From contig JBEKFQ010000001.1 of assembly GCA_050013235.1 (NCBI GenBank), positions 163,712 through 227,711 on the forward strand: a stretch of 64,000 nucleotides of DNA, written 5' to 3'. The translations under genes and the position numbers were made by a program. A model generated the notes under the pieces. It saw only the letters and a program-made list of their open reading frames with translations. It made no database searches and was not told the DNA's origin. The stretch comes from Beijerinckiaceae bacterium. Its GTDB lineage: Bacteria > Pseudomonadota > Alphaproteobacteria > Rhizobiales > Beijerinckiaceae. Positions 3,608 to 30,402 of this stretch are shown here, piece by piece; position 1 is the stretch's first letter, and every line of letters starts with the position of its first letter.

Positions 3608-4308
3608 ACTAGGCTCGCTTCAGGGCTACGCCCGGCGCGGGCACCCGGACGGTGCCGAAAAAACCAGCCCATGAGTGCAAGGCCCGCGAGAGCCCCGGCC
3701 AGTTGCGCGACGATGAACATGGGAACATCCGCCGGCGCAATGCCCGAAAAGCTATTGGTCAGCGCGCGGGCAATGGTGACGGCGGGATTGGCGAAAGACG
3801 TGGAGGCCGTGAACCAATAAGCCGCCGTGATGTAGAGCCCGACCGCGACCGGAATTGCCTCGCTCTTGAAACGCGACACCGCGAGGATGGTGACGATCAG
3901 GCCGAAAGTGGCGACGAACTCCGCGAACCATTGCGCCGGACCGGTGCGCGCCTTGATCGCAAATTCGAGCAAGGGCAGTTCGAACATACCATGCGCGACC
4001 AGGGTTCCAATGCAGCCGCCGGCAATCTGCGCGGCGGCGTAAGGCAGGAATTCCCGCCACGGATGCTCTTTGCGCAAGCCCATCACCAGCGAAACCGCCG
4101 GGTTGAAATGCGCCCCGGAGATCGGACCAAGCGCGAGGATCAGCACCACCAGAATCGCGCCTGTCGGCAAGGTGTTGCCGAGCAGAGCGAGGGCGACGTT
4201 TCCGCCCGATAGCTTCTCGCCCATGATGCCAGAGCCAACCACCGTGGTGACGAGCAGCCCTGTTCCAAGGCATTCCGCCGCGAGGCGTTTGGCGAGCGGG
4301 AAGGTCAT
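3604..4308 (-). CDS. MIP/aquaporin-family channel in ars operon (AqpS-like)
   Basis: Two NPA motifs ([19 protein letters not shown]); 4-bp overlaps with arsC and arsH. Confidence 0.92.
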
Positions 4309-27151: not shown

Positions 27152-28465
27152 ATGTCCGTTTCAGTTGCTTATGCGCCTAACCATACAGGAACCTTCCTAG
27201 CCCATGAATCCGAGGTCCGGTCCTATTGCCGCAGAATGCCGCGTGTCTTCACGCGAGGCCGTAACGCTCATGTCTGGGACGAAGCCGGCACGGAATTCAT
27301 CGATTTCTTTTCGGCCTGCGGTTCGCTCAACTACGGCCACAACGACGCTCTGATCAAGCAAGCCGCGCTCGATCACCTGGAATCCGATTCCATCATCTGC
27401 GGGCTCGATCTACACACGTCGGCCAAACGCAACTTTATCGATGCGTTTCAGCGCATTGTTCTGGCGCCGCGCGGTCTGGATTATAAGCTTCAGTTTCCCG
27501 GGCCGACTGGCACGAATGCGGTCGAGGCGGCCCTAAAGCTGGCTCGCAAGGTCACCAAGCGGCATAATGTGGTGGCCTTCTCCCGTGGCTTCCATGGCAT
27601 GACGCTCGGCGCATTGGCCGCGACCTATAACAAGCAGGCTCGCCTAGGCGCGGGGGTTCCGCTCACCCATGTGACGCGCCTCGCCTACGAAAACGACGAA
27701 GATTGCGGTTTCCCGAGCCTCGACGCGTTCGCGGCCCGGTTCGAATCCGCCACGGCGGAAGCCGGAGCCCCGGCGGCCTTCCTTGTCGAAACGGTCCAAG
27801 GCGAGGGCGGCCTTCACGTGGCCTCCAAAGCCTGGCTTCAGCGTCTTGCCGCGCTGGCCAAGCGACTGGGATCCCTGTTGATCGTCGACGATATTCAAGC
27901 TGGCTGCGGGCGGACGGGACCGTTCTTCAGCTTCGAACGGGCTGGCATCAAGCCCGATATCGTCTGTCTCGCAAAATCCTTGAGCGGCCTCGGCCTCCCC
28001 ATGGCCCTCGTCCTCATCAAGCCTACATGGGACAAATGGTCTCCCGGTGAACATAACGGCACGTTCCGGGGCAATAATCTCGCCTTCGCGACGGCAACCG
28101 CGGCTCTCGGCTATTGGGAGCAAGCGAGCTTCCTCGGCCAAAAAGAGCAGAGCGAAACCCTGGTGCAAGCCTGGCTGGAAATGAAAAGCCGTATTTACCA
28201 CTCTTATGGGGTGAGCGCCCGCGGGCAAGGCCTGATGGCGGGATTGCGGTTTGCTTATCCCGGACAGGCGGAAGCCGTGGCCCGTGAAACGTTCAAGCGC
28301 AATGTGCTGATCGAAACCGCCGGTCAAAACGACGATGTTCTAAAACTCATGCCGCCGCTGACGATACCCCATGATGTCTTGATCGAGGGATTGGAGCGTA
28401 TCTCGCAAGCAATCGACGCGGTCCTGCCGGTTTCGGACACCGCCAGCCAAACCCTCGCGGCGTGA
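27152..28465 (+). CDS. Diaminobutyrate--2-oxoglutarate aminotransferase, EctB-like, without ectA/ectC
   Basis: ESEVRSYCR, GSLNYGHN, GLDLHT.AK, FPGPTGTNAVEAALKLARK, DDIQAGCGRTG, PLP Lys in LAKSLSG. Confidence 0.9.
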   Translation: MSVSVAYAPNHTGTFLAHESEVRSYCRRMPRVFTRGRNAHVWDEAGTEFIDFFSACGSLNYGHNDALIKQAALDHLESDSIICGLDLHTSAKRNFIDAFQRIVLAPRGLDYKLQFPGPTGTNAVEAALKLARKVTKRHNVVAFSRGFHGMTLGALAATYNKQARLGAGVPLTHVTRLAYENDEDCGFPSLDAFAARFESATAEAGAPAAFLVETVQGEGGLHVASKAWLQRLAALAKRLGSLLIVDDIQAGCGRTGPFFSFERAGIKPDIVCLAKSLSGLGLPMALVLIKPTWDKWSPGEHNGTFRGNNLAFATATAALGYWEQASFLGQKEQSETLVQAWLEMKSRIYHSYGVSARGQGLMAGLRFAYPGQAEAVARETFKRNVLIETAGQNDDVLKLMPPLTIPHDVLIEGLERISQAIDAVLPVSDTASQTLAA

Positions 28466-28506: not shown

Positions 28507-29223
28507 TCAAAGTCCGATAATGCCTTCCTGAATCGCGATGACAATCGCCGTAATCCGGTTGCTCGCATCCAATTTCCGCATTGCATTGCCGATATGAAAT
28601 TCAACCGTCCGTTCGGCGACGGAAATGATTTGGCTGATCTCCCAATTCGTTTTGCCGTCTTTAGCCCATGACAAGCATTCGCGTTCCCGTCCCGTGAGCT
28701 GAATCTTTCTTTCCTCACATTCGAGTTCGCTCGAGAGAAGAGCGGAATGGCGGATCCAGGTTTGGGCCGCGAGCGCATAAATGAAAGGCACCCGCCGGGG
28801 GTCCGGTTTAGGTCCGTCGCGAAGGCTCACACTTACAATATGCGTACTGCCGTCAGGATTATGGAACGGCATTGTCAGCCCGCTGTGAACGCCCATATCC
28901 TTGCAATCGTCGAAAAACGCCCTTTGGCATTGGGTGAGCGGCCGGTTGTGGGCTATTGTGTCCCAAAGGAACGGTTGCTTCGCGATAATTGTCTGCTGCA
29001 ATATAGGGTCTATTAGATTGAACTTATTGCCAAAGTACTGCTCAGTATACCCGCTTGGAAATTCTTTGGCAATAATACACACCTCTGTTTTGTGGGGCAA
29101 ATGAGCGAATACAATGTTTTGATATCCTTCATCTACAACAGAAGCTTGAAATAATGCGCCAAGATCGCTCGGGCTCGCGACAGCTTGGGTCGCTTCTAGA
29201 AAATCTTCAAAATTGGACGCCAT
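28507..29223 (-). CDS. LuxR-family regulator with autoinducer-binding domain
   Basis: FPSGYTEQY, IDPI, PFLW, HSGLT, LTGRERECLSWAKDGKTNWEIS, HTH. Confidence 0.92.
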   Translation of the reverse strand: MASNFEDFLEATQAVASPSDLGALFQASVVDEGYQNIVFAHLPHKTEVCIIAKEFPSGYTEQYFGNKFNLIDPILQQTIIAKQPFLWDTIAHNRPLTQCQRAFFDDCKDMGVHSGLTMPFHNPDGSTHIVSVSLRDGPKPDPRRVPFIYALAAQTWIRHSALLSSELECEERKIQLTGRERECLSWAKDGKTNWEISQIISVAERTVEFHIGNAMRKLDASNRITAIVIAIQEGIIGL

Positions 29224-30119
29224 GTTGCGCCCCCGCCCCCCCCCCCAATTTGTTCCACGGCGGCTTCCCCAGGTGAAAGCTCGCCGGAAACTTCTTGCAA
29301 GAATGAGAGAAGAAGCTCGTTGAATTGATCAGGCGCTTGCCAATGCGCGGCGTGACCAACCCCTTCGAGAACCTGAACCGCGCCGCGCCAAAGATTCCGG
29401 TAGGCCGGCTTTCGCAGATAGGCAAGATTGATAAAGGGGTCTTTGTCCCCGTGGAGCACGGCCAACGGCCGGACATCGCGTTCGGCCAAATCCCACTCGT
29501 CCAAACCAAGGCCGTTCATGGCGTTTTGGACCATCCAAAAGCGGGCATCCCCATCTGTTCTGCGAACTGCCTTCAAAAGGTCCGGCGTGAGAAATTCCGG
29601 GCCGCCAACAACCGCTTCGCCGTAAGCGATCGCATCCTCGAGGCTGAAGTCGCGCTGACCCGCGTAATTCATCGCCCCTGAGGGGAGAAAAGCCTCGGCC
29701 AGCGATTCCATCCGCATTTTAGCGGCGGGCGTTCCAACAATGAGAAGCGAAGCGACACGGGCGTCACGGCCCATCAATTCCAGCCCGACATGCCCGCCGA
29801 GCGACCAGCCCACGACATGGATGGATTCAATCGCGAAGAAATCAAGTATCTCGGCTACGATCCCCGCATAACCAGGAAAGCTATAGACCGCCGAAGGATT
29901 TTTTGCATTTTCCGACGCGCCGTGGCCAGGTAAATCCAATGCCAATACGCCATAGCCCTGCTCGCGAAGGAGCGAGATCTGGGCCGCGAATATTTCTTTA
30001 CAGGCGGAATTCCCGTGAATCAAAAGGACGAGCGGACGCCGGCCTAAATAATAAACTAGGTCGATACGCCCACAACTTACCTCTACCGCATGATGATAAT
30101 CCGGCATGTGATGTGCCAT
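29196..30119 (-). CDS. Alpha/beta hydrolase resembling AidH-type AHL lactonase
   Basis: IHGNS, DLPGHG, YSFPGYA, GWSLGGH nucleophile elbow, RTDGDAR, HGDKDPF, NLWRG, GVGHA; similarity to AidH recalled from memory, not searched. Confidence 0.75.
   Translation of the reverse strand: MAHHMPDYHHAVEVSCGRIDLVYYLGRRPLVLLIHGNSACKEIFAAQISLLREQGYGVLALDLPGHGASENAKNPSAVYSFPGYAGIVAEILDFFAIESIHVVGWSLGGHVGLELMGRDARVASLLIVGTPAAKMRMESLAEAFLPSGAMNYAGQRDFSLEDAIAYGEAVVGGPEFLTPDLLKAVRRTDGDARFWMVQNAMNGLGLDEWDLAERDVRPLAVLHGDKDPFINLAYLRKPAYRNLWRGAVQVLEGVGHAAHWQAPDQFNELLLSFLQEVSGELSPGEAAVEQIGGGGGGATWRPILKIF
29230..29246. repeat. C5-G-C11 homopolymer tract (G11 on coding strand) at hydrolase/luxR junction
   Basis: CCCCCGCCCCCCCCCCC read directly. 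Confidence 0.9.
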
Positions 30120-30388
30120 AACTCGCGTGACAATTGCTGCTCACCTCAGCAAGACTATTCACACCTCGCGCGTCATGCAACATTAAATTGCAATCTCGCG
30201 CGAAATGGATTTTTGAAAACCAAAAACAAACTTTATTTCAATGAGTTCAACCACTTAAGAGTTAACTGGCTTTTTTTTGAAATACAACCATAGAGGGTAT
30301 TTACGATATCGTTCTCGAAAAAGATGTTCGGTATTTCTGGCTCCGGCGCAGTGTTATACTTTATAACAAGAAGAATTCGCCCCACCCC

Positions 30389-30402
30389 GGGGGGGGGGGG
30401 GG
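30389..30402. repeat. G14 homopolymer between parC stop and hydrolase promoter region
   Basis: 14 consecutive G preceded by CCCCACCCC. Confidence 0.9.

Follow-up and report, generated by a model that had tools for sequence, protein, structure and literature searches.

Among host-adapted pathogens, hypermutable repeats are a classic means of bet-hedging, and simple-sequence repeat (SSR) contingency loci with poly-G/C phase variation are described from Neisseria, Haemophilus, Campylobacter and Helicobacter; to our knowledge, such repeats are little documented in free-living soil or peat Alphaproteobacteria. The locus described here lies in a 64,000-nt stretch of DNA (the window) from a Beijerinckiaceae metagenome-assembled genome (MAG), and resembles the SSR contingency loci in carrying a run of 10 to 14 G residues, the length of which differs between otherwise identical genomes and determines in which frame the sequence downstream is read. 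Unlike those loci, no observed allele turns either gene off, the tract stands at the junction of two autonomous genes rather than inside a gene or promoter, and the host is a free-living peat alphaproteobacterium and not a host-adapted pathogen. Of the features by which SSR loci are recognized, a long repeat beside a gene and length variation are present at this junction, and on/off switching of expression is absent from the modelled range of G8 to G17.

Other described systems also bear comparison. AidH of Ochrobactrum sp. T63 (PDB 4G5X, 4G8B) is similar over its full length to the hydrolase encoded upstream of the junction, and shares with it the GWSLGG motif and the catalytic His, the acidic residue being an Asp in the window protein. 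In contrast to AidH, the window protein, a lactonase by homology, is extended at its C-terminus by ~30 residues, which change as the tract length changes, and its gene, part of a LuxI/LuxR cassette, overlaps luxR in an operon-like manner. As in translationally coupled overlapping gene pairs, the hydrolase ORF ends 17 or 28 nt into luxR and contains the luxR Shine-Dalgarno (SD) sequence, an arrangement that the nearest species shares; here, however, the stop has two alternative positions, set by a hypermutable repeat, and the coupling is putative. With 5'UTR RNA G-quadruplexes (PMC11087576) the locus shares a G-rich element beside the ribosome-binding site and a predicted tetrad count that depends on length, but the element at this junction is natural, heritable, length-variable and located inside an upstream ORF, its folding being predicted only. 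A simple-sequence hypermutable tract is a known kind of element; its location in this peat alphaproteobacterium, on the luxR ribosome-binding site and at the same time in the tail of an AidH-type lactonase, appears to be undescribed, and a full-text literature search returned no paper that connects phase variation at homopolymers to LuxR quorum sensing.

The hydrolase is assigned to the alpha/beta-hydrolase fold by its Pfam matches to Abhydrolase_1 (7.9e-23) and Abhydrolase_6 (2.8e-22). Its best solved relatives by far are 4G5X, 4G8B, 4G8C and related entries, which we take to be the structures of the AidH AHL-lactonase; the alignment to 4g5x_A (E = 1.5e-48) pairs query residues 9-276 with chain residues 5-268. 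The nucleophile Ser106 of the GWSLGG motif aligns to AidH Ser102, His256 to His248 and Asp227 to Glu219 (a conservative change), and these three AidH residues presumably have catalytic roles. Judged by these alignments, the protein is an AidH-type lactonase homologue. The hydrolase fold ends at about residue 276-280, in agreement with a reading made from the sequence alone (the sequence-only reading), which placed its end near LLSFLQEV: the AidH alignment stops at residue 276, at approximately LLSFLQE. The last ~30 residues, which span the tract, are non-conserved and lie outside the fold. By its domain content, namely an Autoind_bind domain (PF03472, 9.3e-19) and a C-terminal GerE domain (PF00196, 7.4e-19), the protein encoded downstream is a LuxR-type receptor, and its N-terminus, MASNFEDFLE, is kept in relatives. 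A LuxI homologue and a class-III aminotransferase adjoin the pair; the aminotransferase gene (27152-28465 of the window, and also in loci L016 and L017) is given as 437 aa or 409 aa depending on the public record, its start being ambiguous. The genome comprises 194 contigs and 4.15 Mb at 60.8% GC, close homologues are labelled as Beijerinckiaceae MAGs, and the locus is present in many peat metagenome runs.

A promoter and terminator scan gave nothing informative in the region between the genes. From the hydrolase start to the luxR start no sigma-70-like promoter was predicted, in keeping with co-transcription of the hydrolase gene and luxR, and we infer that the two probably form one transcription unit. 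Upstream of the hydrolase start, on the minus strand at 30176-30192 and 30100-30160, perfectly conserved blocks such as CAATTTAATGTTGCATG and TGAATAGTCTTGCTG are shared with an 85%-identical species in which the surrounding AT-rich spacer has diverged; these blocks are candidate promoter or regulator sites of the hydrolase-luxR unit. RNA evidence for the locus is limited to a 179-nt contig from a bioreactor metatranscriptome (run X22), identical to the luxR 3' end (window 28519-28697), which does not reach the junction.

The features of the junction and its surroundings are listed in Table 1.

Table 1. Features of the hydrolase-luxR junction and of the second long run, in window coordinates.
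Feature	Position	Strand	Remarks
luxR	28507..29223	-	238 aa
AidH-like alpha/beta-hydrolase gene	29196..30119	-	307 aa in G11 frame
TAG stop, hydrolase G11/G14 frame	29196..29198	-	28-nt overlap with luxR
TGA stop, hydrolase G10 frame	29207..29209	-	after ..QHGVQF; 17-nt overlap with luxR
Junction	29221..29249	+	CAT GTTGCG CCCCC G CCCCCCCCCCC AAT
luxR ATG (as CAT)	29221..29223	+	
GTTGCG	29224..29229	+	
C5	29230..29234	+	
G	29235	+	
C11	29236..29246	+	
AAT	29247..29249	+	
G5 run (probable luxR SD)	29230..29234	-	6 nt upstream of luxR ATG; counterpart of sister-species GGAGG
Poly-G tract	29236..29246	-	G11 in window assembly; same clone has G10 or G14 in further public assemblies
Second long run, C14 then GGGGTGGGG	30380..30402	-	7 nt past parC stop, ~270 nt upstream of hydrolase start; plus strand reads CCCCACCCC then G14

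The coding-strand sequence of the junction is ATT-G11-C-G5-CGCAAC-ATG, in which 23 nt separate the Ile codon from the luxR ATG, exactly as the sequence-only reading had it. In the G11 frame of the window assembly the hydrolase ends in ...EQIGGGGGGATWRPILKIF, and its ORF overlaps luxR by 28 nt. The junction was rebuilt in silico with 8 to 17 G residues. Lengths of G8, G11, G14 and G17 give a hydrolase ending in ..ATWRPILKIF, and G10, G13 and G16 give the ending ..AGAQHGVQF, so that the different stop foreseen for G10 is recovered. In G9, G12 and G15 the frame stays open into luxR, yielding a stop-free hydrolase-LuxR fusion of 536-538 aa (..EQIGGGGRGRNMASNF..) with the junction peptides ..EQIGGGGR / GRNMASNFEDFLEATQ..; the rebuilt G12 sequence thereby reproduces the in-frame joining of the 307-aa hydrolase and the 238-aa LuxR that had been proposed. 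Over the whole range from G8 to G17 the catalytic domain of the hydrolase is intact, as are the luxR ORF and SD sequence, and tract length alters only the hydrolase tail, its stop or the fusion.

The order aminotransferase, luxR, hydrolase is kept in four species of the genus, the window genome included; parC follows the hydrolase in the window genome and in its nearest species (G020, 85% amino acid identity), and species G015 and G019 are without an adjoining parC-like ORF. At the orthologous loci of these relatives the genes are separate and there is no tract. The junction of G020 reads ATTGGAGGTCCACGTCATG, with a GGAGG SD sequence 8 nt before the ATG, and its hydrolase ends in ..HGIQF on a TGA inside luxR codons 5-6; the TGA of the G10 frame is identical to this stop in position and frame. 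In a 92%-identical strain the hydrolase ends in ..SIGGPHHGIQF, and the hydrolases of the more distant G015 and G019 stop directly after LLLSFLLS.., with a short spacer before luxR. The caveat attached to the sequence-only reading, that the G run may act as the luxR SD, fits the sister-species site, and the G5 run is probably the luxR SD sequence. Because the sister species has a plain GGAGG at the junction and an ordinary hairpin at the position of the second long run, both runs are seen as recent, lineage-specific replacements, and by this comparison the junction run evidently grew out of the luxR ribosome-binding region.

Tract length was compared in short-read consensus contigs (Logan, JGI and ENA), in which any minority alleles within a sample, such as G12, would be invisible. 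The census is small, at ~15 contigs, and some JGI, ENA and Logan records probably derive from the same samples. G11 is found in the window, in runs X1-X4 (8-23x), in X12 and in SRR7027742; G10 in X6/SRR7028364, JGI 3300018009, JGI 3300017925, ENA ERZ27249941 and ENA ERZ27249792; and G14 in X9, JGI 3300048777 and JGI 3300048772. The 90% protein cluster of the hydrolase contains exactly the tails of these alleles. The G10 contig has no substitutions relative to the window in 5,900 bp, and the G14 contigs are identical to it over 1.9 kb: across the compared 1.9-5.9 kb of the locus, the repeat is the only difference within one clone sampled in peat metagenomes from 2017/18 to 2025. Between the G10 and the G11 samples, none of the control runs examined differs in length. 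The G14 run at 30389-30402 measures 14 in every assembly spanning it, X1, X2 and X6 agree on the length of the G12 run of contig C40, and the C10 run on contig C25 is C9 in X9 (2025) only, so the junction tract is more polymorphic than longer control tracts. Identical backgrounds together with constant longer control runs indicate that the length variation is real and not an artefact of a single assembly. The tract undergoes slipped-strand length variation in the natural population; as the sequence-only reading had supposed, it slips, and it is not invariant at G11. In two G10 contigs (L013 and L014, from JGI 3300018009 and ENA ERZ27249941; genes at 3816-4100) luxR is called as a 94-aa GerE-only protein, and since the luxR DNA of both contigs is identical to that of the window, this call is an annotation artefact beside the run. 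Ten further runs (X13, X14, X23, X24, X15, X16 and X17-X20) have too low a coverage, and their contigs break at the tract.

Long G/C runs are rare in this genome. Their number drops ~6.5-fold per added base up to length 8, and only seven runs of at least 9 occur in 4.15 Mb; five are of at least 10 (10, 11, 12, 14 and 14), against 0.28 extrapolated from the decay of the shorter runs, so that the junction run greatly exceeds chance expectation. Two of these five longest runs flank the hydrolase gene in complementary orientation (on the plus strand, C11 at 29236-29246 and G14 at 30389-30402), and the chance of any pair of runs lying this close is p ~0.005. The C14-GGGGTGGGG element has a predicted hairpin of -18.5 kcal/mol and stands where the sister species has an ordinary GC-rich hairpin. 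The remaining long runs are at C25:13834-13843, C40:16367-16378, C131:6340-6353, C130:4937-4945 and C9:33960-33968. The G12 on C40 lies ~20 nt upstream of an ATG, the C130 run (G9 on the coding strand) lies in an apparent signal-peptide region, and the C14 on C131 is 24 nt from the contig end. The possibility that the hydrolase segment inverts by way of the two complementary runs was considered, and no inversion joints were found in any run examined; the sole joint-like record is a 63-nt low-complexity contig from X12 matching both runs, and Logan contigs of this kind (45-63 nt) were set aside. The idea that the hydrolase gene is an inserted cassette bounded by the runs was rejected, as the parC/luxR synteny is conserved in species lacking them.

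The explanation that we favor, and hold to be the probable one though well short of certain, is that the tract is a lineage-specific hypermutable repeat which leaves the two genes separate and has at most a graded effect on LuxR, perhaps a near-neutral one. A G-rich ribosome-binding region of luxR, seen as GGAGG in the sister species, would have expanded into a simple-sequence repeat at the place where the hydrolase ORF reads across the luxR start, and replication slippage changes its length. All three observed alleles (G10, G11 and G14) keep the hydrolase and LuxR separate with their domains intact, and luxR retains its own G5 SD sequence and ATG. Length selects between two hydrolase tails and stops, the TGA with a 17-nt overlap (G10, apparently the ancestral frame) versus the TAG with a 28-nt overlap (G11 and G14), and also changes the G-rich RNA directly 5' of the luxR SD sequence. 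LuxR would be translated from its own SD sequence, probably coupled to termination of hydrolase translation, and any shift in its translation would be graded at most, acting through the termination-reinitiation distance, the SD context or G-rich structure; the receptor-to-lactonase ratio would shift as a consequence. Such a tract would be neither an on/off nor a fused/unfused switch, and may be close to neutral. The greater polymorphism of the tract compared with longer controls, together with the placement of two long runs around one gene, nevertheless hints at something beyond neutral slippage.

A more specific role for length is suggested by RNA structure prediction. The G11-C-G5 sequence conforms to the four-G-run, short-loop pattern of a G-quadruplex, and ViennaRNA with its gquad option predicts a three-tetrad structure. 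An RNA (or non-template DNA) quadruplex formed by the G run and the G5, with its tetrad number set by tract length, could heritably tune luxR translation or transcription: the predicted number is two at G10, three at G11-13 and four at G14, the G5 serving as the fourth leg, with minimum free energies of -62.5, -76.8 and -92.5 kcal/mol for the 2-, 3- and 4-layer forms. The steps fall exactly at G11 and G14, and 11 and 14, both seen as alleles, are minimum lengths by the rule 3L+2. An RNA G-quadruplex in a 5'UTR alters translation in E. coli in a size-dependent manner (PMC11087576). The evidence at this junction is, however, entirely that of an energy model, ribosomes on the hydrolase tail would unwind the structure, and the allele sample is tiny. 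Because the 3L+2 thresholds share the period of the reading frame, the alleles also cannot separate retention of the frame from a quadruplex step, and tuning of this kind is considered unlikely. Equally doubtful is the broader proposal of a selected, heritable rheostat, in which slippage would reset the LuxR-to-lactonase ratio through a tetrad-dependent quadruplex on the SD sequence or through occasional fusion; if it were true, clonal peat populations would diversify their quorum threshold.

It could also be argued that the tract has one true length and that G10, G11 and G14 arise from Illumina homopolymer errors and assembler choices, as the data consist entirely of short-read consensus sequences, about half of the low-coverage runs yield contigs interrupted at the tract, and one run has noisy G-rich loose ends at the other tract. 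Against this, G10 was recovered from JGI, ENA MEGAHIT and Logan assemblies, G14 from two JGI assemblies and from Logan X9, and G11 from at least six assemblies; in the same runs neither the longer G14 run, at a distance of 1.15 kb, nor the C40 G12 run varies, and the three-base difference of G14 is atypical of a miscall. The recurrence of each allele across assemblers and samples, with control runs constant between G10 and G11, largely answers the concern about homopolymer miscalls that accompanied the sequence-only reading, and we regard a purely technical origin as improbable.

The principal proposal of the sequence-only reading was a slipped-strand switch between separate and fused lactonase and LuxR. 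Spelled out as a model, the locus would alternate between separate proteins (G10 or G11) and a lactonase-linker-LuxR fusion (G12) with distinct signalling. In its favor, G9, G12 and G15 open the 536-538-aa frame with a Gly/Arg-rich linker, the tract slips in nature, the tail following the hydrolase fold is non-conserved and linker-like, and G12 is a single step from G11, the commonest allele. However, none of the three alleles found (~15 contigs) has the fusion frame, G10 and G14 being seen and the nearest neighbour G12 not, and the two genes are separate in all four related species. Six fusion proteins (two start calls for each of G9, G12 and G15) had no exact match among ~15 billion proteins, nor did the G13 variants in the same collection. 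When a fusion query was scored on its LuxR part, the only protein of at least 295 aa recovered was an unrelated one of 303 aa; when it was scored on its hydrolase part, LuxR domains were found in none of the 120 closest long homologues (295-442 aa). A HMMER search of 1.84 billion representatives likewise found LuxR domains in none of the 150 best matches. The few long matches in that search have the hydrolase at the C-terminus behind a second hydrolase, a permease or an N-terminal extension of unknown kind, and some long homologues are without any added Pfam domain. Natural hydrolase-LuxR fusions of the sort envisaged are therefore absent from the ~270 homologues listed. The proposed phase variation stands as far as length slippage is concerned and is unsupported as to the fused state, for which no G9, G12 or G15 allele appeared in the contigs, the homology searches or the exact look-up; the switch as a whole is judged very unlikely. 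Production of a minor fusion fraction from a fixed G11 or G14 genotype by transcriptional slippage or -1 frameshifting is the least credible alternative and can be largely set aside: a -1 shift in G11 or G14 does enter the luxR frame in the in-silico rebuild, the G run exceeds the RNA:DNA hybrid in length and formally contains a slippery heptamer (G GGG GGG), but bacterial RNA polymerase is known to slip mainly on A/T runs and no downstream stimulatory structure was identified.

For the favored reading, that of a slippage-prone repeat at the ribosome-binding region of luxR, the significance depends on whether its length reaches the receptor. The locus also shows how a gene caller can react to such a run (luxR as 94 aa in G10 contigs). 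If tract length has no effect on LuxR, the junction would still be a clean natural example of repeat instability; if length does affect LuxR dosage, quorum thresholds could be varied among the members of a population by simple genetic means.
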